Positions 15,357-62,771 of a stretch of 64,000 bases of DNA are shown piece by piece. A model generated the notes under the pieces. The model had not been told where the DNA came from. It ran no database searches and saw only the letters and a program-made list of their open reading frames with translations. A program made the position numbers and the translations under genes. Source of the DNA: Squalus acanthias (taxonomy: Eukaryota); the NCBI GenBank assembly GCA_030390025.1, contig CM059431.1, forward strand, positions 132,434,001 through 132,498,000, in the 5' to 3' direction. Positions within the stretch are counted from its first letter, which is position 1. Each line of letters opens with the position of its first letter.

Positions 15357-17797
15357 ATTTTTTTTTTCGCTTATGGGATCTGGGCATCACTGGCAAAGCC
15401 AGCATTTATTGCCCATCCCTAATTGCCCTTGAGAAGGTGGTGGTGAACCACCTTCGTGAACCGCTGCAGTCCGTGTGGTGAAGGTACTCCCACAGTGCTG
15501 TTAGGGAGGGAGTTCCAGGATTTTGACCCAGCGACGATGAAGGATCAGCGATATACTTCTAAGTCAGGATGGTGTGTGACTTGGAGGGGAACTTGGAGGT
15601 GGTGGTGTTCCCATGCGCCTGCTGCCCTTGTCCTTCTAGGTGGAAGAGGTCGCGGTTTTGAGAGGTGCTGTTGAAAAAACCTTGGCGAGTTGCTGCAGTG
15701 CATCTTGTAGATGGTATACACTGCAGCCACAGTACGCTGGTGGTGGAGGGAGTGAATGTTTAAGGTGGTGGATGGGGTGCCAATCAAATGGGCTGCTTTG
15801 TCCTGGATGGTGTCGAGCTTCTTGAGTGTTGTTGGAGCTGCACTCATCCAGGCAAGTGGAGAATATTCCATCACACTCCTTACTTGAGCCTTGTAGATAG
15901 TGAAAAGGCTTTGGCGACAATCATAGAATCATAGAAAGTTACAGCATGGAAGGACGCCATTTCGGCCCATCGTGTCCGCGCCGGCCAACAAAGAGCTATC
16001 CAGCCTAATCCCTCTTCCTAGCTCTTGGTCCGTAGCCCTGCGGGTTAGAGCATCCCAAGTGCACATCCAAGTACTTTTTAAATGTGGTTAGGGTTCCTGC
16101 CTCTACCACCCTTTCAGGCAGTGAGTTCCAGACTCCCACAACCCTCTGGGTGAAGAAATTTCCCCTCAAATCTCCTCTAAACCTTCCACCAATTTATTTA
16201 AATCTGTGCCCCCTGGTTTTTGACCCCTCTGTTAAGGGAAATAGGTCCTTTCTATTCACTTTATCATTGCCCCTCATAATTTTATACACCTCAATAAGGT
16301 CTCCCCTCAGCCTCCTCTACTCCAAGGAAAACAGACCCAGCCTATCCAGTCTTTCCTCATAGCTAAGATTCTCTACTCCCGGCAACATCCTTGTAAGTCT
16401 CCTCTTTACCCTCTCTAGTGCAATCACATCTTTCCTGTAATGTGGTGACCATAACTGCACGCAGTACTCTAGCTGAGGCCTAACTAGTGTTTTATACAGT
16501 TGAAGCATAACCCCCCTGCTCTTGTATTCTATGCCACGGCTAATAAAGGCAAGCATTCCGTATGCCTTCTTAACCACCTTATCTACCTGGCCTGCTACCT
16601 TCTGGGATCTGTGGACATGGACTCCAAGATCCCTTTGTTCCTCTACACTACTCAGTGTCCTACCATTTAATGTGTATTCCCTTTCCTTGTTAGCCCTCCC
16701 CAAATGCATTACCTCACACTTCTCTGGATTGAATTCCATTTGCCACTGTTCTGCCCACCTGACCAATTTATTGATATCTTCCTGCAGTCTACAGCTTCCT
16801 TCTTCAGTATCAACCACACAGCCGATTTTAGTATCATCTGCAAACTTCTTAATCATACCCCCTATATTCAAGTCAAGATCGTTGATATATACCGCAAAAA
16901 GCAAGGGACCTAGTACTGAGCCCTGCGGAACCCCACTGGAAACAGCCTTCCAGTCACAAAAACACCCATCAACCATTACCCTCTGCTTCCTGTCTCTGAG
17001 CCAGTTTTGAATCCAACTTGACACTTTGCCCTGGATCCCATGGGCTTTTAACTTCGCGACCAGTCTGCCATGTGGAACCTTATCAAAAGCCTTGCTAAAG
17101 TCCATATACACTACATCAAATGCACTAGCCTCATCTACCCTCCATGTTACCTCCTCAAAAAATTCAGTCAAGTTTGTCAGACATGACCTTCCCTTAACAA
17201 TCCCTTAACAAATCTGTGTTGACTATCCTTGATTAATCCGTGTCTTTCTAAATGAAGATTTATCCTGTCCTTCAGAATTCTTTCCAATAATTTTCCCACC
17301 ACCGAGGTTAGGCTGACTGGCCTGTAATTACTCGGTCTATCCTTTTCTCCCTTTTTAAACAAGGGTACCACATTAGCAGTCCTCCAGTCCTCCGGCACCA
17401 CACCTGAAGCCAGAGTCAGGAGGTGAGACACTCGCCGCAGAATACCTAGCCTCTGACCTGCTCTTGTTGCCACAGTATTTATGTAGCTGGTCCAGTTAAG
17501 TTTCTGGTCAATGGTGACCCCCAGGATGTTGATGGTGGGGGAGTCGGCGATGGTAATACTGTTGAATGTCAAGGGGAGGCGGTTAGACTCTCGCTTGTTG
17601 GAGATAGTCATTGCCTGGCACTTCTGTGGCACGAATGTTACCTGCCACTTATCAACCCAAGCCTGAATGTCGTCCAGGTCTTGTTGCATGTTGGCATGCA
17701 CTGCTTCATTATCTGAGGAGTTGTGAATGGCATTGAACACTGTGCGGTCATCAGCGAACATCCCCATTTCTGACCTTATGTTGGAGGGAAGGTCTTG
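15357..17797 (-). mobile_element. tRNA-headed LINE family, 5'-truncated copy, split by a CR1
   Basis: RT motif MFADDRTVF at 17767 and C-terminal MEYSPLAWMSAAPTTLKKLDTIQ. 3' tail GGCAATTAGGGATGGGCAATAAATGCTGG plus poly(A). Confidence 0.88.
15919..17413 (-). mobile_element. CR1 LINE 3' part nested in the tRNA-headed LINE
   Basis: ORF 16317-17171 with YMDFSKAFDKVPH, GVPQGSVLGP and FADDTK, ending in an (ATTCTATG)n tail. Confidence 0.95.
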
Positions 17798-20700
17798 ATG
17801 TGCTATATCTGTTGGGGGCCAGGAGGCCCTTCAGACACACACTCAGACGGCAATGGGAGCAGATAGCCCTGGCGGTCAATGCCAGGAGTCAAGCCCCGAG
17901 GACCTGGATGCAGTGCTGTAAGAAGTACAATGACCTCACACGTGTGGTGAAGGTTAGTGAATGCATCTTCAAATGCCTTATCCTGTAAACTGCACCACTA
18001 GCCTCAGCCACTGCTCAATGGACCACATCCCTATCACTCACCTACCAACAATCTCTATCAATCAGGACTCATCCCTAATATTTATAGCTTCACCTTACCC
18101 TCACACACTTAGTACTGCTGCAAGACTTACACCCATATCTCACACACACTGCCAGCTATTCAAGCATGACAGCCACATTACCCAAACAGATTGCATGACA
18201 CTCACTTCCCTGTCTTTTGCAGGACAAGATGGCACACAACCGGAGACAGCAGGAACTAACTGGTGGGGAACAGGCATGGCTGCATGTCCTTACCACATGG
18301 AGGAGACGGTGCTCGCCATCATTGGAGTGGCCGTTGCTGAGACCGTGGCCAGCGGTGGAGCTGAAACCATAGAAGGTGAAGGTATCCTCATACCTAATCC
18401 TCCTTCTCACATCCCACTTCCCCCTCCTCCCACAATATCTTCTGATTTACAAGCTGCAGATGGTATAAGCATGCACTTCTTAATTTCCCCGCTCCCCTCA
18501 CCACAACCTTACCCTTGTGCCTTTCTCCTTACGATACACAAGAACTGCCACCTGGCCAGTGGTGGAAGAGCAACAAGATACTGATGATGAAAAAACACTG
18601 TCACTCGATTTCACACTCGCAGCCACCAGCTCAGATACTGACACTGCGTGTAATTTAGAGGCTAGCTTAGAGGCGGTATCGGCACGTGGTGAGACAACGG
18701 GCACGAGTGACCTGCAGCCAGGTCATGGAGCAAGGGTTGCGCAGGTGCCAGCTCACAGGTGGGCGAGGTCGTACACGAGTTCTGCTGCACAGGACTCAGA
18801 TGAGCACTTCGATGGGGCGGCCTACAGAAGAAGGCTGATGGGTGTGCACAATGAAATGCTTGGTGCATTGGAAGGCCTGGCAGAAAGCCTGCGTGAAATG
18901 ACCAGGAGCATGGAGGAGTCCAGCATCAACTTTGGACAGGGCTTTGCGCAGAGCTTGGAGCCCATCCTTTCCAGCATGGAAGTGGTGTCCAACTCCATTA
19001 ACACACTTGTGGACCCAACCATGATGCAGTGTCTGATGGCCGATGTCTCAGCTTCCATTGAAGCACAAGCAGAATCCACCCAACCTCTGGGTGCTGCAGT
19101 GGAAGCTCAGACTTCTGTCATTCAAGGCCAGCTTGCTGCCACGCAAACTCAGACTGCTGCCATCATGGCTGCGGGTACCAATGTTCAAAGGGGCTTGCAG
19201 GGTTTCACAGCAGTCCAGCAATCTGTCCTCCAACAAATTACTAGCATTGCTGAGGCGCCGCCCCGGGGGAGTGGCAGTGGCTCCATGGAGCACGAACCTG
19301 CTGTTCTCTCTCAGGATGACAGCATTCATCCTCCCACCCCTGCCACTCAAGAGAGAATGAAATGTAGTCGGCTATCTTTGAATAGAGAGCCTCAGTGACC
19401 TCCCTTATGCAACAGTGGACAGCAAACTGGGAGATGTTGCAAATATCTCCAGCTCCAGCCTGGAAGGAGCCCGACGCATAAAAGCTCATCGTCACTTTCA
19501 CAGCCACTGGCAATGCGGTCCTCGCCCTGCTCTGAGGTTGCAGTTGTGGCTGCAGCAGGTGGCAGATTTCAGTGAAGACATTCTTATTGAAGCGCGGACG
19601 TCTCACAGACTGTTCCTTGCTGAGGTTCAGGAAGGAGAATTGCTCCCTGAACACTCTGGGCGGATATGATCTCCTGCTGAGAGCCCTTCTCCCCCTCCTG
19701 CTCCTCCCTCTTCTAGCAGCTTGTCCTGCTCTGTGTCACCTCTGCTCATTCTCCAAGTCATGCTGTATTCCAAGGGGGGTGCCTATGAATGCACCCACAT
19801 CTGAGAGCAACTGGTTTGCGCAGAAGCCTTGAAGTCAGGACAAAATCCTTCAGGACCTGCCACACCACGCCCTGTAGACTTTAGCAACTTTAAAGAAATC
19901 TAGAAAGCACCAAACACTTCCACAATCATAGTAACAGCCAGTAGAAATCAATCAGCAACGGACCTGAAACTATTTGATGATCTCTTTAAATAGTGCTGAC
20001 AGGGCTCCTTCCTGCTGCTAAACAAGTGTTTAGCTGTGTGAGCTTACAAGAGAGCCTTAGCTGGAGCATTGAGCTCCAAAATAGCATGCTGACATCAAAT
20101 CACCATTTCACGCTGATTGACGTCATGATCTGCCTACTCTGCATACTTCCGGCGGATGCTCACGGTGCACGCACTAACGTCTTCACCAACATGGCGGCTG
20201 GTGCGACTCATCGACTGACGCCAGAAGTGTATGTGCACGCCGTGGACGCCATTTTGGACCTCTAAGGCATTCGTAGCAACTAAAAAACTGCCGCTATGGA
20301 TCTGAATTTTGTGCCCATTCACTTTTGCTTCAAATGCCTAAACTTAAAGTTCACAGAGGTACTCACTGACTCTGATCTCTTCTATTGGCCCAGAATTTGC
20401 TGCCAAAATAATGGCGAGTGGAATTGCTCTAGCCATTGTTAACATTTAACTGTTAGTCAACCTCCTTCCTTCTATGGTTCACAACGACCTGCTTCGAGTA
20501 AGCATGAGACACTTGATGGTAGAGTATACGGAAAATACTTTATTCATAAACAGCATAAGTGATAGATCTGGCTGTGAAATTCAGCACCTTAGTGCCGGTA
20601 GTTATGCTTGGTTTTAAATAAAATAGCGTCTTCCTCGCCTCCACCCACTTCTGGCGCAGCCTGCGCTGTTGGTCATCTTGGTGAGGGCGATAGCGTGGGC

Positions 20701-31930: not shown

Positions 31931-31932
31931 GT

Positions 31933-33221
31933 TTTTTTCTATTTGTTTTATGGAATGTGGGTGTCGCTGGCAAGGTCAGCATTTATTGTCCATCCCTAAT
32001 TGCCGTTGAAAAGGTGGTGGTGAGCCGCCTTCTTGAACCGCTGCAGTCTGTGTGGTGAAGGTACTCCCAGAGTGCTGTTAGGAAGGGAGTTCCAGGATTT
32101 TGACCCAGCGACGATGAAGGATCGGCGATACACTTCTAAGTCAGGATGGTGTGTGACTTGGAGGGGAACTTGGAGGTGGTGGTGTTCCCATGGAAGAGGT
32201 CGCGGGTTTGGGAGGTATTGCTGAAGAAGTCTTGGCGAGTTGCTGCAGTGCATCTTGTAGATGGTACACACTGCAGCCACGGTACGCCGGTGGTGGAGGG
32301 AGTGAATGTTTAAGGTGGTAGATGGAGTGCCAATCAAGCGGGCTGCTTTGTCCTGGATGGTGTTGAACTTTTTGAGTGTTGTTGGAGCTGCACTCATCCA
32401 GGCAAATGGAGAGTATTCCATCACACTCCTTACTTGTGCCTTGTAGATGGTGGAAAGGCTTTGGGGAGTCAGGAGGTGAGACACTCGCCGCAGAATACCT
32501 AGCCTATGACCTGCTCTTGCTGCCACAGTATTTATGTGGCTGGTCCAGTTAAGTTTCTGGTCAATGGTGACCCCCCCAGGATGTTGATGGTGGGGGATTC
32601 GGTGATGGTAATGCCGTTGAATGTCAAGGGGTGGTGGTTAGACTCTCGCTTGTTGGAGATAGTCATTGCCTGGCACTTCTGTGGCGCGAATGTTACCTGC
32701 CACTTATCAGCCCAAGCCTGAACGTCATCCAGGTCTTGTTGCATGCGGGTATGAACTGCTTCATTATCTGAGGAGTTGTGAATGGCACTGAACACTGTGC
32801 AGTCATCAGCGAACATCCCCATTTCTGACCTTCTGTTGGAGGGAAGGTTATTGATGAAGCAGCTGAAGATGGTTGGGCCTAGGACACTGCCCTGAGGAAC
32901 TCCTGCAGCGATATCCTGGGGATGTGATGATTGACCTTCAACCACCACAACCATCTTCCTTTGTGTTAGGTATGACTCCAGTCAGTGGAGAGTTTTTCCC
33001 CCGATTCCCATTGACTTCAGTTTTACTGGGGCTCCTTCATGCCACACTCGGTCAAATGCTGCCTTGATGTCAAGGGCAGTCACTCTCACCTCACCTCTGG
33101 AATTCAGCTCCTTTGTCCATGTTTGGACCAAGGCTGTAATGAGGTCGGGAGCAGAGTGGTCTTGGCGGAACCCAAACTAGGCATCAGTGAGCAGGTTATT
33201 GGTGAGTAAGTGCTGCTTGAT
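31933..33221 (-). mobile_element. tRNA-headed LINE family, 5'-truncated copy
   Basis: GVPQGSVLGPTIF, MFADDCTVF, HHHLFNGN and the family 3' tail. Confidence 0.9.
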
Positions 33222-33487
33222 AAGTATTTCCTAAGAGTATTTCAGTGGAAGTGGGTGAGTTCAGGCTAAATGTGCAGCACCACAGAAATTGCGTCTAATC
33301 AACACTTGAGTCCTAAACTTGCAGGTTTCTGGTTAGCGTCTGCAGGCACGTTCAAATCATGATAATTATCAATTAGCCTGAAAATTGTGTGCTAAATCCG
33401 GACTTTCAAACAGGCATTTTTTATTAACACAGCACCCGTTTATCGCCTGTTTTCACCCTTTGGCCAAAATAACCCCCAGAGACCTGA

Positions 33488-36567: not shown

Positions 36568-39500
36568 TGGATGTGGGCGTCGCTGGCAAGGCCAGCATTT
36601 ATTGCCCATCCCTAATTGCCCTTGAGAAGGTGGTGGTGAGCCGCCTTCTTGAACTGCTGCAGTCCGCGTGGTGAAGGTACTCCCATAATGCGCTTAGGAA
36701 AAGAGTTCCAGGATTTTGACCCAGCGATGATGAAGGAACGGTGATATATTTCCATGTCAGGATAGTGTATGACTTGGAGGGGAACTTGGAGGTGGTGGTG
36801 TTCCCATGCACCTGCTGCCCTTGTCTTTCTAGGTGACAGAGGTCGTGGGTTTGGGAGGTGCTGCCGAAGAAGCTTTGGGGTGTTGCTGCAGTGCATCTTG
36901 TAGATGGTACACACTGCAGCTATGGTGCGCCGGTGGTGGAGGGAGTAAATGTTTAAGGAGGTGGATGGGGTGCCAATCAAGCGGGCTGCTTTGTCTTGGA
37001 TGGTGTTGATCTTCCTGAGTGTTGTTGGAGCTGCACTCATCCAAGCAAGTGGAGAGTATTCCATCACACTCCTTACTTGTGCCTTGTAGATGGTGGAAAG
37101 GCTTTGGGGAGTCAGGAGGTGAGTCACTCACTGCAGAATGCCTAGCCTCTGACCTGCCCTTGTAGCCACAGTTAAGTTTCTGGTCAATGGTGACCCCCAG
37201 GATGTTGACGATGGGGGATTCAGCGATGGTAATGCCGTTGAATGTCAAGGGGAGGTGGTTAGACGCTCTCTTGTTGTAGATGGTCAGTGCCTGGCACTTG
37301 TGTTGTGCAATCATTAGCGAACATCCCCACTTCTAACCTTATGATGGAGGGAAGGTCATTGATGAAGCAGTTGAAGATGGTTGGGCCTAGGACACTGCCC
37401 TGAGGAACTCCCGCAGTGATGTCCTGGGGCTGAGATGATTGACCTCCAACAACCACAACCATCTTCCTTAGAGCTAGGTATGACTCCAGCCAGTGGAGAG
37501 TTTTCCTCCTGATTCCCATTGATGTCAATTTTACCTGGGCTCCTTGATGCCACACTCGGTCAAATGCTGCCTTGTTGTCAAGGGCAGTCACTCTCACCTC
37601 ACCTCTGGAATCCAGCTCTTTTGTCCATGTTCAGAGCAAGGCTGTAATGAGGTCTGGTGCTGAGTGGTCCTGGCAGAACCCAAACTGAGCATTGGTGAGC
37701 AGGCTATTGGTGAGTAAGTGCCGCTTGATAGCACTGTCGACGACACCTCCCATCACTTTGCTGATGATTGAGAGTAGACTGATGGGGCGGTAATTGGCCG
37801 GATTGGATTTGTCCTGCTTTTTGTGGACAGGACATACCTGGGCAGTTTTCCACATTGTCGGATAGATGCCAGTGTTGTAGCTGTACTGGAGCAGCTTGGC
37901 TAGAGGCGCGGCTCATTCTGGAGCAGAAGTCTTCAGCACGACAGCCGGGATGTTGTCGGGGCCCATAGCCTTTGCAGTATCCAGTGCGCTGAGCCGTTTC
38001 TTGATATCATGTGGAGTGAATCGAATTGGCTGAAGACTGGCTTCAGTGATGGTGGGGACTTCAGGAAAAGGCCGAGATGTATCATCCATTCGGCACTTCT
38101 GGCTGAAGATGGTTGCAAACGCTTCAGCTTTGTCTTTTGCAGTCGTGTGCTGGGCTCCACCCTCATCGAGAATGGGGATGTTCATGAAGCCTCCTCCTCC
38201 CATTAATTGTTTAATGGTTCACCACCATTCACGACTGGATGTGGCAGAACTGCAGAGCTTTGATCTGATCCGTTGATTGTGGTATCGCTTAGCTCTCTCT
38301 ATAGCATGCTGTTTCCACTGTTTAGCATGCATGTAGTCCTGTGTTGCAGCTTCCCCAAGTTGGCACCTCATTTTTAGGTACGCCTGGTGCTGCTCCTGGC
38401 ATGCTCTTCTGCACTCCTCTTTGAACCAGGTTTGGTCACCTGGTTTGATGGTAATGCTAGAGTGAGAGTTATATGCCAGGCCATGAATTAACAGATTGTG
38501 GTGGAATACAATTCTGCTGCTGCTGATGGCCCACAGCGCCTCATTGATGCCCAGTTTTGAACTGCTAGATCTGTTCTGAATCTATCAGAATGCTGTCATG
38601 GACAGATGCATATGTGACAGGTAGATTGGTGAGGACGAGGTCAAGTAGGTGTTTCCCTCGTGTTGGTTCTCTCACCACCTGCCGCAGTCCTAGTCTGAAA
38701 GCTATGTCTTTCAGGACTCAGCTAGCTCGGTCAGTAGTGGTGCTGCCGAGCCACTCTTGGTGATGGACATTGAAGTCCCCCACCCAGAGTACATTCAGTG
38801 CTCTTGCTACCCTCAGTGCTTCTTCCAAGTGGTGTTCTACAAGGAGGAGTACTGATTCATCAGTTGAGGTAGGGTGGTAGGTGATAATCAGCAGGCGGTT
38901 TCCTTGCTCATGTTTGACCTGATGCCATGAGACTTCATGGGGTCCGGAGTCAATGTTGAGGACTCCCAGGACCACTCCCTCCCGACTGTATACCACCGTG
39001 CCGTCACCTATGGTGGGCCTGTGCTGCCGGTGGGACAGGACATACCCAGGGATGTTGATGGAGGAAGCTGGGACATGAGCTGAAAGGTATGATTCTGTGA
39101 GTATGACTATGTCAGGCTGTTGCTTTACTAGTCTGTGGGACAGCTCTCCCAATTCTGGCACAAATCCCCAGATGTTAGTGAGGAGGACTTTGCAGGGTCG
39201 ACTGGGCTGGATGTGCCGTTGTCGTGTTCGAAGCCGGTGCCTTGGTCGATGCCGGGTGGTCCGTTCGGGTTTATTCTTGTTATTGTTTCTTGTAGCAGTT
39301 TGTTACAACTGAGTGCCTTGCTTGGCCATTTCAGAGGGCAGTTAAGAGTCAACCACATTGCTGTGGGTCTGGAGTCACATACAGGCCAGACCAGGTAAGG
39401 ACGGCAGATTTTCTTCCCTAAAGGACATTAGTGAACCAGATGGGTTTTTTACAACAATCCGGTAGTTTCACGGTCACATTACTGATACTAGCTTTTTATT

Positions 39501-39604
39501 CCAGATTTATTTAATTAACTGAATTTAAATTCACGTCTCTGGATCAGTTAGTTCAGGCCTCTGGATTACTAATCCAGTAACATAACCACTATGTTACCGT
39601 TCCC
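36568..39604 (-). mobile_element. Full-length tRNA-headed, single-ORF CR1-group LINE (SINE-like head, Arg-rich leader, APE, RT); decayed copy
   Basis: tRNA-like arms at 39561-39597. ATG at 39329 is in frame with VLLTNIWG, ILTESYL and VGDFNVHH (APE). RT motifs NYRPISLLS, AFDRVWH and GVPQGSVLGP. C-terminal HHHLLKGN. No ORF1. Confidence 0.88.
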
Positions 39605-41995
39605 ATGGTGGAAGGATGGATGCTGTCATCCTGAGAGAGGAGAGCAGGCTCGTGCTCCATGGAGCCACTGCCACTCCCCAGGGGTGACACCTCAGCAATC
39701 TGTTAGAGAACAAATTGCTGGACTGCTGTGACACCTTGCAAACCCCTTTCAACACTGGTAACTGCAGCCATGATGGCAGCAGTCTGTGCTTGTGTGTAAA
39801 AAGCTGACATTGCATGACTTCAGTCTGAGCTTCCACTGCAGCACTTAGACATTGGGTGGCTTCTGCTTGTGCTGCAATCCCATCTACAAGGCACAAGTCA
39901 GGAGGGTGATGAAATACTCTCCACTTGCCTGGATGAGTGCAGCTCCAACAACACTCATGAAGCTCGACACCATCCAAGACAAAGCAGCCCGCTTGATTGG
40001 CACCCCATCCACCACCTTAAACATTCACTCCCTCCACCACCGACGCACCGTGGCTGCAGTGTGTACCATCTACAAGATGCACTGCAGCAACTCGCCAAGG
40101 CTTCTTCGGCAGCACCTCCCAAACCCATGACCTCTACCACCTAGAAGCACAAAGGAAGCAGGCGCATGGGAACACCACCACCTCCAAGTTCCCCTCCAAG
40201 TCACACACCATCCTGACTTGGAAGTATAACGCCGTTCCTGGGTCAAAATCCTGGAACTCCCTCCCTAACAGCACTGTGGGAGTACCTTCACCACACAGAC
40301 TGCAGCGGGTTCAAGGCGGCGGCTCACCACCACCTTCTCAAGGGCAATTAGGGATGGACAATAAATGCTGGCCTTGCCAGCGACGCCCACATCCCATGAA
40401 CGAATAATTTAAAAAATGGAAGCTGAGACTTCGGCATTCAGACACTGCGTGATGGTTAGGTCCACAAGTGCGCTAATGGACCTGTCCCCCACTTCCACGC
40501 TGGAAAGGATGGGATCCAAGATCTGCGCAAAGCCCTGTGCAAGGTTGGTGCTGGACTTTTCAATGCTCCTTGACATTGCATTCAGGCTTTCTGGCAGGCC
40601 TGCCAATGCACCAAGCATTTCATTGTTCATACCCATCAGCCTTCTTCTGTAGGCCGCCCCATCGAGAACCTCATCTGAGTCCTGTACAGCAGACCATGTG
40701 TATGACCTCGCCCTCCGGGGAACTGGCACCTGCGCTGCCCTTTCCCCCTGCCCTGGGTTCAGCCCACTCGTGCCCGGTGACTCACCACGTGCAGTCTCAG
40801 CCTCTATTCTACCCTGTGAGTGTGAGATCGAGTGACGGTGTTTCTTCATCATCACTGTCTTCTTCCTCTTCTACCACTGCCGATCCAGGTTGGAGTTCTT
40901 GGGTATCTAAAAGGAGAAAGGGGCAAGGGTAGGGTTGTGGTGAGGGGAGGGAGAAAGTAAGAGGTGCATGCTTATACCATCTGCAGCGTGCAAATCGGAA
41001 GAGATTATGGAATGAGGGGGAAATAGGATGTGAGGAGTATTAGGTATGAGCATACCATCATCTTCAATGGTTTCAGCCCCACCGCTGGCCACGAGCTCAG
41101 CCATAGTTGTTCCAATGATGGCGAGTACCATCTCCTCCATGGAGTAAGGACATGCCTGTCCCCCTCTGGTTAGCTGCTGCTGCCTGCGGTTGGACGCCAC
41201 CTTGTCCTGCAAGGAAGAGGGAAATGTGTCAGTGAGTGTGGAGCCATGTGTTTGGTTGATGTGGTTGTCATGGTTGAATAGCTGGCAGTGTGTGCAAGCT
41301 GTAAGATGTGGGTGTGAAGCTTGCAGCAGTAGTAAGTGTGTGAGGGTGAGATGGAGCATATGAATGTGAGGTATGAGTCGTGATTGTTGGTAGGTGAGTG
41401 ATGGGGTGCAGTGCATTGAGCAGTGTGTGAGGCTAGTGGTGCAGTTGGTGGGATATGACATTTGAAGATACATTCACTGGCCTTGACCACTCATGTGAGG
41501 TCATTGAACTTCTTTCGGCAATGCATCCAGGTCCTCCTGCTGACATTTACCTCAACAGCTATCTGCTCCCACTGCCTTCACAGTGTCTGTCTGGAGAGCC
41601 TCCTGGCCCCCTGCGGATAAAGGACCTTTCTGCTCCTGTTCACCTCCAGCACTAAGGCCTCCAATGCTGTGTCAGAGAACCTTGGAGCCCTCTCTCTGGC
41701 ACGTTGTGCCATTCCTGTTTCTTTGCCAGGTCGAACTTACTTTTGGAATGACTTCCAGCGCTTGCTCTCGTCAACCTGCACCTCCCCTTTAAGAGGTGCA
41801 GGTTGGCTTTAAGAGTGCAGGCTAGCTTTAATTGGTGCTAGCCTTGCACGAACTTGGTCCCCCTGCTGAGCGTTCAGCGCTGGGCTGCACGCTGCAATCA
41901 GGTAAATTATCAGGCAGCACGATGTTTGTGTGCGCAGGTTAATTACGCATCGCGATCCAGGTGCCCATTTTTGGGGGCATTCAAATTTTTTGCCT
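39605..41995 (-). mobile_element. Harbinger fragment with spliced Myb gene (ATG about 41712), truncated by the LINE at 39604 and interrupted at 39878-40415
   Basis: Homologous to the Myb genes of 14975-20316 and 20570-25372. End TCAAATTTTTTGCCT. Confidence 0.82.
39878..40415 (+). mobile_element. tRNA-headed LINE family 3' fragment
   Basis: IYKAQVRRVMKYSPLAWMSAAPTT and the complete 3' tail ...GCCCACATCCCATGAACGAATAATTTAAAAAA. Confidence 0.9.
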
Positions 41996-46749: not shown

Positions 46750-47080
46750 ATTTTTTCATTTATTCATTCATGGGATGTGGGCGTCGCTGGCAAGGCCAGC
46801 ATTTTTATTGCCCATCCCTAATTGCCTTTGAGAAGGTGGTGGTGAGCCACATTCTTGAACCGCTGCAGCCCGTTTGGTGAAAGTACTCCCACAATGCTGT
46901 TTGGGAGGGAGTTACAGGATTTTGACTCAGCAACAATAAAGGAACAGCGATATATTTCCAAGTCAGGAAGGTGTGTGACTTGGAGGGGAAATTGGAGGTG
47001 TTGGTGTTCCCATGTGCTTGCTGCCCTTGTCCTTCTTGATGGTAGAGATTGTGGGTTTGGGAGATGCTGTCAAAGAAGCA
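46750..47080 (-). mobile_element. tRNA-headed LINE family 3' fragment
   Basis: Family 3' tail with (TGAA)n/A-rich end. Confidence 0.85.
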
Positions 47081-47171: not shown

Positions 47172-50112
47172 TGTTCAAACCTCTACAAGAAACTATAATA
47201 AGAATAAAACCAGACGGACCACCTGGCATCGACTGCGGTAACGGCTTCGGACGTGACAATGGCACACCCAGCCCAATTGACCCTGTAAAGTCCTCCTCAC
47301 TAACATCTGAGGATTTGTGCCAAAATTGTGAGAGCTGTCCCACAGACTAGTCAAGCAACGCCTGACATAATCATACTCAAAGAACCATGGTGCAGAAATT
47401 CCGATCCCTACGGGTGTGTACGCGCTGCGTACTCACCCGTAGGGACATGGGAAATGCCGGTTCAGCCAATGTCCCAGATTCCTCTATCACAATCCCTGGG
47501 TATGTCCTGTCCCACCGGCAGGACAGACCCACCAGAGGTGGTGGCACAGTGGTATACAGTCAGGAAGGATTGGCCCTGGTAGTCGTCAGCATTGACTCCG
47601 GACCCCATGAAGTCTCATGGCTTCAGGTCAAGCACGGGCAAGGAAACCTCCTGCTGATTACCACCTACCGCCCTCCCTCAGCTGATGAATCAGTACTCCT
47701 CCATGTTGAACACCACTTGGAAGAAGCACTGAGAATAACAAGGGCACAGAATGTCCTCTGGGTGGGGGATTTCAATGTCCATCACCAAGAGTGGCTCGGT
47801 AGCACCACTACTGACCGAGCTGGCCAAGTCCTGAAGAACATAACTGCCAGTCTGGGCCTGCGACAGGTGGTGAGAGAACCAACACGAGGGAAAAACCTTC
47901 TTGGCCTCGTCCTCACCAATCTACCTGTTGCAGATGCATCTGTTCCTGACAGTATTGGTAACAGTGACCACCGTACAGTCATTGTGGAGACGAAGTCTCG
48001 TCTTCACACTGAGGACACCCTCCATCGTGTTGTGTGGCACTACCACCATGCTAAATGGGATTGATTCAGAACAGATCTAGCAGCTCAAAATTGGGCATCC
48101 ATGAGGCGCTGTGGGCCATCAGCAGAAGCAGAATTGTATTCCACCGCAACTGTAAACTCATGGACCGCCATATCCCTCACTCTACCATTAACATCAATCC
48201 AGGCAACCAAACCTGGTTCAATGAGAAGTGTAGAAGAGCATGCTAGGAGCAGCACCAGGCATACCTAAAAATGAGGTGCCAACCTGGGGAAGCTGCAACA
48301 CAGGACTATATGCATGCTAAACAGCGGAAGCAGCTTACTATAGATGGAGCTAAGCGATCCCACAGCCAACGGATCAGATCAAAGCTTTGTAGTCCTGCCA
48401 CATCCAGTCGTGAATGGTGGTGGACCATTAAACAACTAATGGGAGGAGGAGGCTCCATGAATATCCCCATCCTCAATGATGGTGGAGCCCAGCACGCGAG
48501 TGCAAAAGACAAGGCTGAAGAGTTTGCAACCATTGTCAGCCAGAAGTACTGAGTGGAAGATCCAGCTCGGCCTCCTCCTGAGGTCCCCACCATCACAGAA
48601 GCAATTCGTTTCACTCCAGGTGATATCAAGATACGGCTTAGTGTACTGGATACAGCAAATGCTATGGGCCCCGAAATATCCCAGCTGTTGCATTGAACTA
48701 GCCACGCCTCTAGCCAAGCTGTTCCAGCACAGCTACAACATTGGCAAGCACCTGACAATGTGGAAAACTGCCCAGGTATGTCCTGTCCACAAAAAGCAGG
48801 ACAAATCCAATCCGGCCAAGTACCGCCCCATCAGTCTATTCTCAATCATCAGCAAAGTGATGCAAGGTGTCATCGACAGTGCTATCAAGCAGCACTTACT
48901 CACCAATAACCTGCTCACCGATGCTCAGTTTGGGTTCTGCCAGGACCACTCGGCTCCAGACCTCATTACAGCCTTGGTCCAATCATGGACAAAAGAGCTG
49001 AATTCCAGAGGTGAGGTGAGAGTGACTGCCTTTGACATCAAGGCAGCATTTGACCGAGTGTGGCATCAAGGAGCCCTAGTAAAAGTGAAGTCAATGGGAA
49101 TCAGGGGAAAGACTCTCCACTGGCTGGAGTCATATCTAGCACAAAGGAAGATGTTTGTGGTTGTTGGAAGCCAATCATCTCAGCCCCAGGACATCGCTGC
49201 AGGAGTTCCTCAGGGCAGTGTCCTAGACCCAACCATCTTCAGCTGCTTCATCAATGACCAACCCTCCATCATAAGGTCAGGAGTGGGGATGTTCGCTGAT
49301 GATTGTACAGTGTTCAAATCCATTCGCAGCTCCTTAGATAAGTGCCAGGCAATGACTATCTCCAATAAGAGAGCGTCTAACCATCGCCCCTTGACATTCA
49401 ACAGCATTACTATTCCCGAATCCCCCAAAATCAACATCCTGGGGGTCACCATTGACAAGAAACTTAACTGGACCAGCCACATAAATACTGTGGCTACAAG
49501 AGCAGGTCAGAGGCTGGGTATTCTGTGGTGAGTATCTCACCTCCTGACTCCCCAAAGCCTTTCCACCACCTACAAGGCTCAAGTCAGGAGTGTGATGGAA
49601 TACTCTCCACTTGCCTGGATAAGTGCAGCTCCAACAACACTCAAGAAGCTCAACACCATCTAGGACAAAGCAGCCCGCTTGATTGGCACCCCATCCACCA
49701 CCTTAAACATTCACTCCCTCCACCACCAGCGCACCGTAGCTGCAGTGTGTACCATCTACAAGATGCACTGCAGCAACTCGCCAAGGCTTCTTCGACAGCA
49801 CCTCCCAAACCCATGACCTCTACCACCTAGAAGGACAAGGGCAGCAGGCGCATGGGAACACCATCACCCCCAAGTTCCCCTCCAAGTCACACACTATCCT
49901 GACTTGGAAATATATCGCCGTTCCTTCATCGTCGCTGGGTCAAAATCCTGGAACACCCTCCCTAGCAGCACTGTGGGAGTACTTTCACCACAAGGACAGA
50001 AGCAGTTCAAGAAGGTGGCTCACCACCACCTTCTCGATAGCAATTAGGGATGGGTAATAATGCTGGCCTTGCCAGCGACGCCCACATCCCAGGAACTAAT
50101 ATTTAAAAAAAA
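47172..50112 (+). mobile_element. tRNA-headed LINE family, near-full coding region (head missing), decayed
   Basis: Leader ATRN...RHR...PCKVLLTNI, APE (YRPPS, GDFN, SDH), RT (MFADDCTVF) and 3' tail with poly(A). Contains a MITE end at about 47387-47463. Confidence 0.9.
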
Positions 50113-50404: not shown

Positions 50405-53200
50405 AGGTAACAGAATGGATAGCAAGTGGCTACAAAACAAAAAACAGAGTAGGGCTTAAAGGCAGCTACTCAGACTGGTAAAAGGTTAAGAAGTGGTGTT
50501 CCACAAGGAACAGTGCTGGGACCACTGTTGTTCACAATTTACATTAACGATTTGGACTTGGGAATCAGAAGTACAATTTCTAAATTTGCAGATGACACAA
50601 AATTGGGGGGTGTAGCTCATACAAAGGAAGAATGTGACAAAATACAAGAAGAAGTTAATAAACTTGCAGAATAGGCGTGCAATTGACAAATGAATTTCAA
50701 TATAGTTAAGTGTAAGGTGGTGCATTTTGATAGGAAGAATAAGGAAGCCACATACTGCTTGGATAATAAGAGTCTAAATGGGGTACAGGAGCAAAGAGAT
50801 CTAGGGGTACAGATACACAAATCACTAAAAGTAGTGACGCAAGTTAATAAGGCCATAAAAAAAGCAAACCAAGCACTGGGGTTCATTTCTAGAGGGATAG
50901 AATTGAAAAGCAGGGAAGTCATGTGAAAATTGTATAGAAACTTGGTTAGACTACACTTGGAGTGCTGTGCACAGTTCTGGTCTCCGTATTATAAAAATAA
51001 TACAGACGCATTGGAGAAAGTGCAAAAGAAGTTTCACAAAGATAATACCAGAACTGAGAGGTTATAAGTATCAGAAAAGATTGAACAGGCTGGGGCTCTT
51101 TTCTCAAGAAAAGGGAAGGCTGAGGGGTGACCTGATAGAGTTTTTTAAGATAATGGAAGAGTTTGATAGGGTACATAAGAACATAAGAAATAGAAGCAGG
51201 AGTAGACCATTCGGCCCTTCGAGCCTGCTTCGCCATTCAATGAGATCATAGCTGATCTTCTGCCTCAACTCCATTCACCGGCCCTATCGCCATATCCCTT
51301 GAGGCCCTTACTAGTCAGAAATCTATCGACTTCTGTTTTGAATATACCCAATGACTGAGCCTCCACAGCCCTCTGGGGTAGAGAATTCCAAAGATTCACC
51401 ACCCTCTGTGTGAAGAAATTTCTTCTCATCGCAGTCCTGAATGGCCTACCCTTTATCCTGAGGCTGTGGCCCCTGGTTCTAGACTCCCCAGCCAAGGGAA
51501 ACATTCTCCCAGCATCCACCCTATTAAGCCCTGTAATAATTTTGTATGCTTCAATGAGATCCCCTCTCATTCTTCTGAATTCAAGAGAATACAGGCCTAG
51601 TTTACTCAATCTCTTCTCATACGACAGTCCTGCCATACCAGGAATCAATCTCGTGAACCTTCGTTGCACTCCCTCTATGGCAAGTATATCCTTCCTTAGG
51701 TAAGGAGACCAAAATTGTATACAGTACTCCAGGTGTGGTCTCACCAAGGCCCTATATAATTGGAGTAAGACTTCTTTACTCCTGTACTCAAATCCTCTTG
51801 TAATGAAGGCCAGCATACCATTTGCCTTCCTAATAGCTTGCTGCACCTGCACATTCACTTTCAATGACTCATGTACAAGGACACCCAGGTCCCTTTGAGC
51901 ATCTGTATTCCCCAATCTTTCACCATTTAGGAAATACTCTGCCTTTCTGTTTTTTCTACCAAACTGGATAACTTCACATTTATCCACATTATATTCCATC
52001 TGCCATGTTCTCGCCCATTCACTGAGCCTGTTGAGATCCCCTTGAAGCCTCTTCACATCCTCTTTGCAACTGACACTGTCACCTAGCTTTGTATCATCAG
52101 CAAATTTGGAAATGTTACATTTAGTCCCCTCATCCAAATCATTGATATAGATTGTGAATAGCTGGGGCCCAAGCACCGATCCTTGCGGTACCCCACTAGT
52201 CACAGCCTGCCATCCTGAAAAAGACCCGTTTATCGCTACTCTTTGTTTTCTGTCTGTTAACCAATTCTCAATCCATGCTAGTATATTACCCCCAATTCCA
52301 TGTGCCCTAATTTTGTTCACCAACCTCTTGTGTGGGAACTTATCGAAGGCCTTCTGAAAATCCAAATACACCACATCTACCAGTTCCCCTTTGCCTACTC
52401 CACTAGTTACAACCTCAAAGAACTCCAATAGGTTTGTTAAACAGGATTTCCCTTTCATAAATCCATGTTGACTCTGCCCAATCTTACTATTAGTTTCTAA
52501 GTGCCCAGTTATTGCATCCTTTATAATAGATTCCAACATTTTCCCAACTACTGATATGAGGCTAACAGGTCTGTAGTTCCCCGTTTTCTCTCTCCCTCCT
52601 TTCTTAAATAGCGGGATTACATTTGCTATCCTCCAATCTGCAGTAACCGTTCCAGAATCTATAGAATTTTGGAAGATGACAACCAATGCGTCCACTATCC
52701 CAATGGTCACCTCTTTCAAAACCCTAGGATGTAGGTCATCAGGTCCTTGGGATTTATCGACTTTTAGTCCCATTAATTTTGCTAGTACTGTTTTGTTACT
52801 AATAATAATTTCTTTAAGTTCCTCATTCTCGTCACACCCTTGGTTTTCTCGTATTTCTGGGAGGTTTTTTGTGTCTTCCTCTGTAGACGTAGAGAAGCTG
52901 TTTCCAGTTGTGGGGGAAGACCAAAACTAGGGGCCATAAATATAAGATAGTCACCAATGGATCCAATAGGGAATTCAGGATAATGTGATACTCGCTACCA
53001 CAGAGGTAGTTGAGGCAACTAGCATAGATGTATTAAGGGGAAGCTAGCTAAGTACATGAGGAAAAAAGGAATAGAAGGATATTCTGATAGGGTTAGATGA
53101 AGAGGGGTGAGATGAGTCTCGTGTGGAGAATAAACGCCGGCATCGACCAGTTGGGCCAAATGGCCTGTTTCCATGCTGCAGACTCTATGTAATTCTATGT
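50405..53200 (+). mobile_element. CR1 LINE 3' part (50405-51173 and 52884-53200) split by an inverted CR1
   Basis: RT motifs; the sequence rejoins GATAGGGTA|GACGTAGAGAAG; ATTCTATGT tail. Confidence 0.88.
51174..52883 (-). mobile_element. Young CR1 LINE 3' part with an uninterrupted 502-aa RT frame (51265-52773)
   Basis: NYRPVSL, QHGFMKGKSC, YLDFQKAFDK, GVPQGSVLGP, FADDTKL, and a (TTCTTATG)n tail. Confidence 0.95.
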
Positions 53201-56036: not shown

Positions 56037-56547
56037 TTGGGCCTAGGACACTGCCCTGAGGAACTCCTGCAGTGATGTCCTGGGGCTGAGATGATTAACC
56101 TCCAACAACTACAACCATCTTCCTTAGTGCTAGGTATGACTCCAGCCAGTGGAGAGTTTTCCCCCTGATTCTCATTGACTTCAGTTTTACTAGGGCTCCT
56201 TGATGCCACACTCGGTCAAATGCTATCTTGATGTCAAGGGCAGTCACTCTCACCTCACCTCTGGAATTCAGCTCTTTTGTCCATGTTTGGACCAAGGCTG
56301 TAATGATGTCTGGAGCCAAGTGGTCCTGACGGAACCCAAACTGAGCATCGGTGAGCAGGCTATTGGTGAGTAAGTGCTGCATGATAGCACTGTTGGCGAC
56401 ACCTTCCATCACTTTGCTGATGGTTCAGAGTAGACTGATGGGGCGGTAATTGGACGGATTGGATTTATCCGTTTTTTCTGGACAGGACGTACCTGGGCAG
56501 TTTTCCACATTGTCGGGTAAATGCCAGTGTTGTAGCTGTACTGGAAC
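56037..56547 (-). mobile_element. tRNA-headed LINE family internal RT fragment
   Basis: NYRPISLL, AQFGFRQDH, ALDIKIAFDRVWHQG. Confidence 0.85.
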
Positions 56548-58494: not shown

Positions 58495-61374
58495 TTATAC
58501 AGCACAGAAAGAGGCCCTTCGGCCCATCGTGTCCGCACCAGCCATCAAGCCCTGTCTATTCCAATCCCATTTTCCAGCACTTGGTCCGTAGCCTTGTATG
58601 CTATGGCGTTTCAAGTGCTCATCTAAATGCTTCTTGAATGTTGTGAGGGTTCCTGCCTCTACCACCCTTTCAGGCAGTGAGTTCCAGATTCCAACCACCC
58701 TCTGGGTGAAAAAGTTTTTCCTCAAATCCCCTCTAAACCTCCTGCCCCTTACCTTGAAACTATGCCCCCTGGTTATTGACCCCTCTACTAAGGGGAAAAG
58801 TTCCTTTCTATCTACCCTATCTATGCCCCTCATAATTTTGTACACCTCAATCAGGTCCCCTCTCAGCCTTCTCTGCTCTAAGGAAAATAACCCCAGCCTG
58901 TCCAGTCTCTCTTCATAGCTGAAGCACTGCAGCCCAGGTAACATCCTGGTGAATCTCCTCTGCACCCTCTCCAATGCAATCACATCCTTCCTATAGTGTG
59001 GCGACCAGAACTGCACACAGTATTCCAGCTGTGGCCTAACTAGCGTTTTGTACAGCTCCATCATAACCTCCCTGCTCTTATATTCTATGCCTCAGCTAAT
59101 GAAGGCAAGTATCCCATATGCCTTTTTAACCACCTTATCTACCTGTCCTGCTGCCTTTAGGGATCTATGTACATGCACACCAAGATCCCTCTGATCCTCT
59201 GTCCTTCCTAGGGTCCTACCATTCATTGTGTATTCCCTTGCCTTGTTAGTCCTCCCAAAATGCATCACCTCACACTTTTCAGGGTTAAATTCCATTTGCC
59301 ACTGTTCTGCCCATCTGACCAACCCGTCTATATCGTCATGTAGCCTGAGGCTTCCCTCCTCGCTATTTACCACCCCACCAATTTTCGTGTCATCTGCGAA
59401 CTTACTGATCATACCTCCTCCATTCATATCTAAATCATTAATGTACACTACAAACAGCAAAGGACCCAGCACCGATCCTTGCGGTACACCACTGGACACA
59501 GGCTTCCAGTCACAAAAACATCCTTCGACCATCACCCTCTGCCTCCTGCCACTAAGCCAATTTTGGATCCAATGTGCCAAGTTGCCCTGGATCCCATGGG
59601 CTCTTACCTTCTTGACCAGTCTCCCATGCGGGACTTTGTCAAAAGCCTTACTGAAGTCCATGTAGACCACATCAACTGCACTACCCTCATCCACACACCC
59701 AGTCACCCCCTCGAAAAATTTAATCAAATTGGTCAGACATGATCTCCCCCTGACAAAGCCATGCTGGCTATCCTTGATTAATCCTTGCCTCTCCAAGTGG
59801 AGACTAATTCTGTCCCTCAGAATTTTTTCCAATAATTTCCCTACCACTGATGTTAGGCTCACTGGCCTATAATTCCCTGGTTTATCCCTACTACCCTTCT
59901 TGAATAATGGTACTATGTTAGCTGTTCTCCAGTCCTCTGGCACCTCCCCTGTGGCCAGAGATGTTCTGAAAAATTTGTGTCAGAGCCCCTGCAATCTCCT
60001 CCCTTGCCTCACACAGCAGCCTGGGATACATCTCGTCTGGGCCTGGGGATTTATCCACTTTTAAGCCCGCTAAAACCGCTAGTACCTCCTCCCTCTCAAT
60101 ACTAATTTGTTCAAGTATATCACAATCCCCCTGTCTGATTTCTATGCCTACATCGTCCTTCTCCATAGTGAACACAGATGCAAAATATTCATTTAAAACC
60201 CCACCTACATCTTCTGGCACTACACACAGATTGCCACTTTGGTCCCTAATGGGCCCTACTCTTTCCCTGGTTATCCTCTTGCCCTTAATATATTTATAAA
60301 ACACCTTGGGATTTTCCTTTATTTTGCCCGCCAGTGTTATTTCATGCCCCCTCTTCGCTCTCCTAATTTCTTTTTTAAGTACCCCCCTGCACTCTCTGTA
60401 CTCCTCTAGGGCTTCCACTGTTTTTAGTCCTTTGTATCTGCGAAAAGCCTCCCTTTTTTTCCTAATCCATTCTCGTATATTCCTTGACATCCAGGGTTCC
60501 CTGGGCTTGTTGGTCCCACCCTTGACCTTTACGGGAACATGTTGGCATTGTACTCTCTCTATTTCCTTTCTGAAAGACTCCCACTGCTCTGATGTGGATT
60601 TTCCTACAAGTAGCTGATCCCAGTCCACTTTGGCCAGATCCTGCCTTATCATATTAAAGTCGGCCTTCCCCCAATTTAGAACCTTTATTTCCGGTCCATC
60701 TTTGTCCTTTTCCATGACTACCTTAAATCTCACCGAATTATGGTCACTGTCACCAAAATGCTCTCCTACTGACACTTCTACCACTTGCCCAGTTACATTC
60801 CCTAGAATTAGGTCCAGTACCGCCCCCTCTCTTGTAGGACTTTCTACATGCTGGCTCAAAAAGCTCTCCTGGATGCACTTTAAGAATTCCGCACCCTCTA
60901 AGCCTTTCACACTCTGACTATCCCAGTTAATATTGGGGAAGTTGAAATCCCCTACTATTATTACTCTATTATTTCTACACTTCTCTGAGATTTGCCTACA
61001 TATCTGTTCCTCTATCTCCCCCTGACTGTTTGGGGGCCTATAGTACACTCCCAGCAAAGTGCTTGCCCCTTTTTGTTTTTAAGTTCTACCCATATGGCCT
61101 CATTAGAGGAATCTGCTAAGATATCATCCCTCCTTACAGCAGCAATTGACTCCTTGATTAATATTGCGACACCCCCGCCTCTTTTACATCCCCCTCTGTC
61201 TCGCCTGAAGATTCTATACCCTGGAATATTGAGCTGCCAGTCCTGCCCCTCCCTCAACCATGTCTCTGTGATAGCAACAATATCATACTCCCATGTGTTC
61301 ATCAACACCTTCAATTCATCTGCCTTACTCGCAAGACTCCTTGCATTAAAATAAATGCCGTCCAGCCTTGCCAT
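58495..61374 (-). pseudogene. CR1 ORF2 (APE endonuclease plus reverse transcriptase), frameshifted
   Basis: YFNARSL, ITETWL, YYRPP, GDFN, SDHN, then RT motifs including FADDTK. Confidence 0.92.
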
Positions 61375-61498
61375 ACTCCCTTGTGCCGTTACATATTTGC
61401 TCTGACTTCCAGGTTGACTTGTTTTTTCCTCTATATTTGGCTGTGCATCACCCCCTACTATAGCTCCACTCTGTATCCCATCCCCCTGCCAAGTTAGT

Positions 61499-62449
61499 TT
61501 AAACCCCCCCCCCCACAACAGTACTAGCAAACCTCCCCGCAAGGATGTTGGTCCCGTTCCGGTTCAGGTGCAACCCGTTCGACTTGTCCAGGTCCCACCT
61601 TCCCCAGAAGCAGACCCAGTGATCCAGGAAACTAAAGCCCTCCCTCCTGCACCAACTCTTTAGCCACGCATTCATCTGCTCTATCCTCCTATTCCTATAC
61701 TCACTAGCATGTGGCACCGGGAGTAATCCAGAGATTACAACCTTTGAGGTCCTGCTTTTTAATCTGCTACCTAGCTCCCTAAATTCTTGTTGCAGGACCT
61801 CATCCCTCTTTCTACCCATGTCGTTGGTACCAATGTGAACCACGACCTCTGACTGTTCGCCCTCCCCCTTCAGAATGCCCTGCAGCCGTTCAGTGACATC
61901 CTTGACCCTGGCACCAGGGAGGCAACATACCATCTTGGAGTCACGTCTGCAGCCACAGAAACGTCTATCTGTTCCCCTTACGATAGAATCCCCTATCACT
62001 ATTGCTCTCCCACTCTTTTTCCTCCCCTCCTGTGCAGCTGAGCCACTCGTAGTGCCACGGACTTGGCTCTTGCTGCATTCCCCTGAGAAACCATCTCCCC
62101 CATCAGTATCCAAAACGGAAAATCTGTCGGAGAGAGAGATGGACCCAGCGGACTTCTGCACTACCTTCCTAGTTCTTTTACTCTGTCTGGTGGTCACCCA
62201 TTCCCTGTCTGCCTGTGCACTCTTTACCTGCGGTGTGACCAACTTGTTAAATGTGCTAGCCAAGAAGATCTCAGCTTCACAGATGCTCCACAGTGACTCC
62301 AGCCGCAGCTCCAGCTCCGAAACATTGATTTCGAGTAGCTGCAGCTGGAGACACTTCCTGCACATGTGTTCGCCCTGGACACCTAAAGTGTCCCTGACTT
62401 CCAACATAGCACAGGAGGAGCACTCCACACTGTCGAGCTGCCCTGCCAT
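61499..62449 (-). CDS. CR1 ORF1 protein: CxxC/CxxC zinc finger, leucine zipper, SGNH esterase domain
   Basis: CSSC...CRKC, heptad Leu repeat, IGDSIVRG, HIGTND, GLHLN. Confidence 0.88.
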   Translation of the reverse strand: MAGQLDSVECSSCAMLEVRDTLGVQGEHMCRKCLQLQLLEINVSELELRLESLWSICEAEIFLASTFNKLVTPQVKSAQADREWVTTRQSKRTRKVVQKSAGSISLSDRFSVLDTDGGDGFSGECSKSQVRGTTSGSAAQEGRKKSGRAIVIGDSIVRGTDRRFCGCRRDSKMVCCLPGARVKDVTERLQGILKGEGEQSEVVVHIGTNDMGRKRDEVLQQEFRELGSRLKSRTSKVVISGLLPVPHASEYRNRRIEQMNAWLKSWCRREGFSFLDHWVCFWGRWDLDKSNGLHLNRNGTNILAGRFASTVVGGGV

Positions 62450-62771
62450 GTCCTACCATTAATTTACTCCTTTTAAATTAAAGAATATTAAATACACTAG
62501 GGACCTTACTTCCCTTTAAACACTACTTACTCTAAACTAGAGACCTTACTTTTACTTTAATGACTGGAATGTAGAAATACTGTAGAAATACTCACCGCTG
62601 GTTCTCTGTCCCCTCTTGTGCAGCTTTTTAGCTCCTGCTCTCCTGGAAGCTGACAAAGATGGAAAAAGAAAGGAACACCTCACTCCCCAAACTCACAGTT
62701 TAACACTCTGTTCCAATCTGCTCATTTGAAATTGGGCCTTGGGCCTCATCTGAATAATATCAGTGAGCTGC

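Follow-up and report, generated by a model that had tools for sequence, protein, structure and literature searches.

A tRNA-headed LINE of Squalus acanthias purged of T-runs in its sense strand, and its possible transcription by RNA polymerase III

Short interspersed elements (SINEs) are products of RNA polymerase III (Pol III) that are kept short by its stop signals and its weak processivity (PMC10886601, PMC5786205). Long interspersed elements (LINEs) are described as RNA polymerase II (Pol II) units, and weak Pol III processivity is held to keep SINEs and TRIMp3 elements no longer than about 1.3 kb (Kojima 2018, PMC5786205; Kojima 2024, PMC10886601). In sharks and rays, the HE1 SINE is paired with the HER1 LINE (Ohshima 2013, PMC3747384). 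Here, a LINE family was analyzed in a stretch of 64,000 nucleotides (nt) from Squalus acanthias (assembly GCA_030390025.1, contig CM059431.1, positions 132,434,001-132,498,000, forward strand), hereafter called the window, and in the rest of the genome. The element is about 3.25 kb long and consists of a tRNA-derived SINE-type head of about 95 nt, a leader of about 200 nt, a single 973-codon open reading frame (ORF) for an APE endonuclease and a reverse transcriptase (RT), and a 3′ untranslated region of about 55 nt. Its sense strand is purged of T-runs, and its head makes Pol III a candidate for its transcription. Runs of at least three or four equal bases are written T3+, T4+, A4+ and so on.

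The headed element is like the tRNA-derived SINE2 elements with LINE-derived tails, for example the elasmobranch HE1, in that its exact 5′ end is an A/B-box tRNA-like head, its 3′ tail is common to a LINE, its body lacks T4 and its copies number in the thousands. The family may resemble the HE1/HER1 pair, or conceivably be that pair itself. Unlike SINEs, which are 100-700 bp long and non-coding (PMC10886601), it measures 3.25 kb and carries the 973-codon APE and RT ORF. It resembles CR1/L2-type LINEs, such as the one at 58495-62452 of the window, in its Pfam domains (Exo_endo_phos_2/Exo_endo_phos and RVT_1) and in having mostly 5′-truncated copies, but it differs from them in the lack of ORF1, the tRNA-type head in place of a Pol II leader, the 3′ A-run, the number of T4+ (0 versus 18) and an RT identity of only 26-32%. 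The 3′ order of AATAAA, a T-run where one is present, and an A-run recalls that of mammalian T+ SINEs, B2 and others, in which the middle signal is the Pol III terminator (PMC12101331, PMC12358842); in contrast to these, the headed element has a T-run of at least three in only 8 of 29 copies, has its AATAAA 40 nt upstream and is protein-coding.

Two further systems are comparable. The TRIMp3 and Cassandra long terminal repeat retrotransposons belong to a class that normally depends on Pol II and have acquired a tRNA or 5S promoter; however, all of them are non-autonomous and at most 1.3 kb long, and Pol II has been argued to be obligatory for their autonomous partners because of the weak processivity of Pol III (PMC10886601). 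Bipartite non-autonomous LINEs have been proposed as a source of SINE bodies, and the SINEs found here are likewise composed of a LINE 5′ part and a 3′ part; the bipartite model adds the tRNA head to a deleted LINE, whereas the full-length headed LINE already has it (PMC5786205). No LINE with a tRNA-derived head and no Pol III-transcribed LINE was found in a search of the full-text literature, outside which lay Repbase and Dfam entries and supplements, and the excerpt of Luchetti 2017 (PMC5499810) makes no mention of such a LINE.

T-runs in the sense strand

The window contains one full-length copy of the headed LINE on the minus strand, one copy on the plus strand that starts at about element position 297 and lacks the head, and six shorter 3′ fragments. 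The plus copy (47172..50112), whose APE and RT frames are decayed, had been described in a sequence-only reading as spanning 47172-50100 with no sense T4+ against 12 A4+. Both counts stood on recounting, whereas the true end was found at 50112, where the terminus ...CCCACATCCCAGGAACTAATATTT is followed by A8 (TATTT then A8). The 2929 nt of 47172-50100 (+) comprise 829 A, 828 C, 661 G and 611 T, with 12 runs of at least four A, 12 of C, 5 of G and none of T. The minus copy (36568-39604), which lacks about 100 nt at two internal places and also the last ~12 nt and the A-run, has exactly two sense T4 (38066..38069 and 36699..36702, read from 38069 and 36702 on the minus strand) and 12 A4+. Both T4 proved to be copy-specific, as the sequence-only reading had it: when the copy was aligned with 18 others, CCTCCTCCT stood at the former site and CTCCCTCCCT at the latter in 17 or 18 of its sisters.

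In 18 copies taken together, 18 T4+ were counted versus 87 expected from independent bases; the corresponding values were 261 and 271 for A4+, 131 and 116 for G4+, and 163 and 248 for C4+. In an alignment of 19 copies, each T4+ was private to its copy; the only exceptions were two TTT sites that had been hit repeatedly (in 2 and 3 copies) and the T-runs that close the 3′ end. Therefore, the founding sense strand, over about 3.25 kb, held no T4+ run. The T4 count alone is only marginally below chance and is weak evidence. For the plus copy, 4.4 T4+ are expected from independent bases, 2.04 from dinucleotide shuffles (probability of none, P(0), 0.112) and 1.14 from a second-order Markov model (P(0) 0.312), and synonymous-codon shuffles of its ORF part gave 2.77 (P(0) 0.030). 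Dinucleotide shuffles of the family copies gave 2.0-3.0 (P(0) 0.03-0.12), and synonymous shuffles of the ORFs of 19 copies gave a mean of 2.76 with a mean P(0) of 0.044. Two outcomes that the sequence-only reading had named as refuting did not occur: codon-shuffled controls hold about two to three T4 runs, not about zero, and the founding sequence has no T4. As a test, the codon shuffle is marginal.

T3+ runs were then compared with synonymous shuffles. The best-kept copy (L072, 815 codons open) has 4 T3+ versus 10.7 in the shuffles (P ≤ 0.001, 2.5-fold below), a second copy (L073) has 7 versus 12.3 (P 0.005), and the family's own part of a third (L071) has 5 versus 10.0 (P 0.009). All 19 aligned copies fall below their own shuffles (181 versus 289.7 in total; 15 of 19 at P < 0.05), and this depletion counts as one observation, not nineteen, the copies having one common ancestor. 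Exact TT pairs are at expectation (59 versus 57.6), and A3+, C3+ and G3+ are not depleted. The T3+ depletion arises because codon choice before TTN avoids T endings. Among codons able to end in T, T-ending ones before TTN number 0 of 21 in L072 (5.0 expected), 0 of 21 in L073 (5.5 expected) and 0 of 17 in L071 (4.2 expected), and codons ending in TT precede a T-starting codon in 1 of 110 cases (4.6 expected). These results show a purge of T-runs throughout the family that depends on strand (sense), on base (T) and on run length, and that acts at synonymous sites.

Other mobile elements of the same genome served as comparators; they are few and not close relatives, and three of the five loci taken from the genome for this purpose proved to belong to the headed family itself. 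The RT identity of the comparators to the headed LINE is only 26-32%, and they are therefore different families. The CR1-type LINE at 58495-62452 (-), with an esterase-type ORF1, APE and RT (29% RT identity, sense T 22.1%), contains 18 T4+ in 3958 nt. The earlier claim of at least seven sense T4 in its part 58500-59940 was borne out, since this LINE is coded on the minus strand and the seven plus-strand A4+ there are seven sense T4+. The RT ORF of another family at 51265-52926 (-) (32% identity, sense T 24.9%) has 5 T4+ in 1662 nt, and a piece at 16317-17830 (sense T 23.8%) has 5 in 1514 nt. Two ORFs of another LINE family from elsewhere in the genome, both with 20.8% sense T, have 9 T4+ in 3918 nt (L070) and 8 in 3321 nt (L074), more than in their own synonymous shuffles, and in both of them codons that end in T are over-represented ahead of TTN (23 of 79 and 20 of 67, respectively). 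The comparators carry 5-18 T4+ each, or 2.3-4.5 per kb at similar T content, and show no purge; T3+ depletion was absent from all 10 comparator ORF pieces from other mobile elements (P 0.10-1.0). In L071 (G000:C3445:267400-271900), a headed copy continues in frame into the APE part of another LINE (sense 2652-3299), so that a chance open frame of 971 codons results. The 2.59 kb of the headed family in this locus contain no T4 and the next 1.85 kb, foreign LINE plus flank, contain 12, the T4 runs beginning exactly at the junction.

Head, reading frame, descent and 3′ end

The family has the features of a LINE, namely an APE endonuclease domain (PF14529, E 3e-13, and PF03372; window 47366-48064 and 38718-39302), an RT domain (PF00078, E 2.4e-28; window 48461-49531) and many dispersed, mostly 5′-truncated copies with a common 3′ end. 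A 455-nt query of the head plus 5′ part gave 10,270 first-look candidates in the 3.7-Gb genome, and 40 of 40 scored matches were near full length; a query of ORF nt 500-1000 gave 4757 first-look candidates. In 39 loci selected by the head (L031-L069), the head continues directly into the ORF; 21 of them extend to the 3′ tail, and 17 are near full length (~3.25 kb). The 5′ flanks of the headed loci are unrelated up to the common start GGGAACGGTAGC. The 3′ flanks also differ between loci, with the exception of L049 and L061, a duplicate pair with common flanks.

The A box of Pol III promoters has the motif TRGCNNAGTGG and lies about 8-20 nt from the start, and the B box, GGTTCGANNCC, lies 30-60 nt downstream of the A box. 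An A box (TAGCATAGTGG) with at most one mismatch was found in 35 of 41 heads, mostly at +9, and a B-box-like AGTTCAAATCC occurs at about +73 in 19 of 41. The D arm and the anticodon arm are discernible in the head alignment. In a 136-nt search, the Rfam tRNA model scored 25.3 bits on the head of L048 (E 0.0014), which is below the gathering score of 29. The minus copy of the window extends about 300 nt further 5′ than the plus copy; this head and leader (39303..39604, -) show a tRNA-like D arm and anticodon arm and an A box TAACATAGTGG at 39596-39586, the B-box/T-arm portion being deleted.

The 5′ end was further examined in copies chosen by ORF nt 500-1000, whose upstream part was read at 20 of 39 places. 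Nine of these 20 copies reach back at least as far as head position 126, five end within the head at scattered points (170, 186, 223, 272 and 274), one is cut at about 350, four do not have the region and one runs off the sequence edge. From the promoter boxes, the unrelated flanks and this sample, we regard the tRNA-type head as the true 5′ terminus of the family. A headless parent class starting at about position 300, like the plus copy, was considered and rejected, since in the same 20 of 39 places only two starts at 272-274 and one at about 350 were seen.

The T-arm and B-box region is a deletion hotspot. At element positions ~60-105 (window 39545-39520, -), deletions of at least 5 nt occur in 13 of 18 full-length copies within one 30-column window, against a median of 1 copy and a next-highest value of 5 among 110 windows. 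The endpoints differ in nearly every copy, which suggests that the deletions arose while a folded, perhaps base-modified tRNA-like RNA was being reverse transcribed, or by slippage between GAGTTCAAATCC and GAATTTAAATTC, which resemble each other. In L034, L045, L047, L058, L066 and L071, the head is of a second type (GTAATGTCAC...GGGC) with at least four linked differences from the common one. The ORFs of the two groups are almost indistinguishable, which hints that heads may be exchanged between LINE and SINE RNAs. In a test of head-ORF co-evolution on a tree of 23 copies, the second head type required 3 changes, and 18 of 500 shuffles were as low; no conclusion follows.

The 973-codon APE and RT frame was open in the founding state and begins right after a common TAA. 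The ATG at 'GAAATGGCC' was ruled out as its start, since TAG comes after it in 10 of 18 copies, as does the common TAA. An upstream ORF of 76 codons (ATG in CAATGTGG, -1 phase) is conserved and overlaps the first ~170 nt of the main ORF (window 39340-39130, -). The overlap is stop-free in 19 of 19 copies, and L071 has lost 20 nt in a deletion of its own that makes one frame of the two. No classical slippery heptamer was seen by eye.

The ORF tree of 23 copies is star-shaped, with support for none of 20 inner branches and a median end branch of 0.044, and the family therefore derives from one burst. SINE-type short forms exist in which element positions 1 to ~310 are joined to the last ~55-170 nt (L048, and joints in sequencing-run contigs). 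Contigs from four differently labelled organisms (runs X1, X3, X8 and X11) carry the headed LINE at 88-99% likeness, and run X11 is fixed for its own differences at places 2407, 2545, 3202 and 3212 of L054; judged by these sequences, the family was therefore active in, or common to, several related species. None of the 40 listed of the 278 differences in the run comparison makes a sense T4, a sample too partial to count.

At the 3′ end, 26 of 29 copies read ...GGGCAATAAATGCTGGCCTTGCCAGCGACGCCCACATCCC-AKGAAYGAAT followed by A5-10, and almost every tail holds an AATAAA. Between the conserved GAAYGAAT and the A-run there are 0-8 extra T or T/A (TTT, ATTT, TATT, T8), as at 50090-50112 (+) and 40395-40416 (+) of the window. 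A T-run of 3-8 stands right before the A's in 8 of 29 ends, including L041 with T8 then AAA. In three of the 29, L072 among them, this run is a T4+, and it is the sole site in the element with T4+. The length of the A-run is oddly uniform for an old poly(A) tail.

Possible transcription by Pol III and alternative explanations

For human Pol III, T4 is the minimal terminator, T6 or more is needed for full stops, and U-tails are 1-6 nt long (PMC5725217). On the sequences compared, the best explanation of the purge, and one that we hold to be somewhat probable rather than secure, is that the full-length LINE RNA is made by Pol III from the head and that T-runs were purged as Pol III stops. Pol III would start the full-length RNA at +1 of the head. 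A T4 in the body would truncate this RNA, so that source copies with T-runs would have left no descendants. Transcription would stop at a T-run just past the element, and the 0-8 T found between GAAYGAAT and the A-run would be what is left of that stop. A short A tail would then be added to the RNA, as happens with mammalian T+ SINEs. SINEs with the same head and the last ~55-170 nt, which are abundant, would be internal-deletion forms of the same transcript. The sequence-only reading had held that the whole ORF was selected for Pol III read-through. T-run avoidance at synonymous sites, a stronger signal that this reading had not noticed, and the genuine head support that claim in part; the T4 statistic is weak alone (P(0) ~0.03-0.13), and Pol III as the selecting agent is what we infer.

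Several observations weigh against Pol III transcription. The B box is absent from 22 of 41 heads, these being private deletions of that stretch. At its gathering score, Rfam reported nothing in the window, and 8 loci searched at E ≤ 1 yielded no tRNA; ARAGORN recognized a tRNA in one head out of 39 and found none within the window. T3 is not a known stop for vertebrate Pol III, so that the T3 depletion calls for a further assumption: either that termination can be weak and non-canonical, or that selection favored sequences mutationally remote from T4. Since the family comes from one burst, the T-run statistics describe one founding sequence and not replicated evolution. The contigs of runs X1, X3, X8 and X11 are short, have very high word depth and show a depth gradient from 3′ to 5′, a genomic-repeat pattern that is uninformative on expression. 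Pol III RNAs are uncapped, and in the 19-copy alignment the first in-frame ATG common to at least 10 copies lies 286 codons into the main ORF; a 973-codon ORF on an uncapped RNA would thus have to be translated without a common in-frame ATG in its first 286 codons, and Pol III would have to make 3.2 kb in vivo. With respect to length, Pol III-driven Alu reporters with a neomycin-resistance cassette retrotranspose without ORF1 protein (PMC2666806), and Pol III RNAs well beyond SINE length can therefore serve as templates.

A fuller form of the Pol III explanation is possible, although we would sooner doubt than assert it as a whole. The element would be an autonomous LINE with a 3.2-kb Pol III genomic RNA, possibly also its messenger, made from an internal promoter of tRNA origin, with a coding sequence shaped at synonymous sites to be free of Pol III stops, its own T-run terminator and an A tail. 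Translation would be cap-free and perhaps aided by the tRNA-like leader, and the T-arm deletions would reflect the reverse transcriptase jumping over a folded, perhaps base-modified 5′ end.

The strongest alternative, which we consider unlikely, is transcription by Pol II. The SINE-type head would then be a co-opted 5′ untranslated region, acquired in a single recombination or template-switching event with a SINE RNA, and T-runs would be avoided for some other RNA-level reason, such as proteins that bind U-tracts, cryptic splice signals, or cryptic cleavage and polyadenylation. The A-run would be left over from ordinary poly(A) directed by the AATAAA, and the AATAAA lying 40 nt before A5-10 in 26 of 29 3′ ends, equally expected from Pol II cleavage and polyadenylation, counts here against Pol III. 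Non-LTR elements are moreover described as Pol II transcribed (PMC10886601, PMC5786205). Gain of the head from SINE RNAs would agree with the head variants, whose linked differences on a nearly unstructured ORF tree hint at exchange. However, transcription by Pol II would need to begin right at tRNA position +1 in copies whose flanks are unrelated, and no headless full-length class appeared in the 20 sampled copies. Further AATAAA in the head and leader, at about +115 and about +325, are signals that a Pol II element might avoid. The other LINEs tested show no T-run avoidance, and the variable T-runs before the A-run would be left unexplained.

It is improbable that no selection acted and that the lack of T-runs reflects composition (T 19-21%; Phe 2.2% of residues, with TTC preferred 5:1) and chance in a single founding sequence. 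The T4 count fits such an account, and to that extent speaks against a Pol III purge: a second-order Markov model expects only 0.7-1.75 T4+ in the family copies (P(0) 0.17-0.5), so that the absence of T4 is not significant, and synonymous shuffles of L072 expect 1.8 against 0 observed (P(0) 0.12), again not significant. Its 815 codons include 3 TTT and 15 TTC for Phe, and all copies come from one burst. Yet shuffles that preserve both protein and codon usage give 2.5 times more T3+ (P ≤ 0.001), with TT pairs and A, C and G runs at expectation; 0 of 21 T-ending codons before TTN versus 5.0 expected is hard to square with chance; and comparators at the same T content (20.6-22.1%) carry 8-18 T4+.

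Least probable of all is that the headed copies are in effect long SINEs, whose Pol III RNA serves only as a template, its ORF never being translated, while other RNAs (Pol II read-through transcripts or those of a different LINE) supply the protein in trans; the missing early ATG, the mobilization of short deletion forms by the same head and tail (L048 and the run-contig joints) and the retrotransposition of Pol III-made RNAs without ORF1 protein in the L1/Alu assay (PMC2666806) would suit it, but the founding ORF was open for 973 codons, and a separate headless relative did not turn up among the remaining high-scoring RT matches that were inspected, all of which belong to the headed family or to unrelated ones.

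If Pol III transcription is true, this LINE, which is 3.25 kb long and protein-coding, has a SINE-type head and is purged of T-runs, would blur the division by which LINEs are assigned to Pol II and SINEs to Pol III, and a Pol III unit could evolve to carry a long ORF. The partner SINEs would have a simple origin as internal deletions of an already Pol III-driven LINE, and the family would be a natural test case for the translation of Pol III transcripts. Any LINE library could be screened cheaply by comparing T3+ and T4+ with synonymous shuffles and by examining which codons are chosen ahead of TTN.

Other copies and features in the window

Shorter pieces of the headed LINE family lie at several places in the window. 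Three are 5′-truncated copies, of which one retains the 3′ 1.2 kb (31932..33222, -) and two retain the 3′ 0.54 kb (15374..15917, -, and 39880..40416, +, the latter ending in GAATAATTT plus A6). A 3′ fragment at 46751..47079 (-) adjoins the plus copy on its upstream side, and an internal fragment from the RT region lies at 56037..56547 (-).

The plus copy is interrupted just past its first ATG, at 47399-47462 (+), by a stretch of about 64 nt with an internal inverted repeat (47405-47445 self-pairing). This stretch matches 9078-9141 (-) at 79.7% and is probably a small inserted repeat. Elsewhere in the window, an open frame of 342 codons at 28804-29832 (-) contains a DDE_Tnp_4 transposase domain (E 3.9e-31) and represents the relic of a PIF/Harbinger-type DNA transposon.

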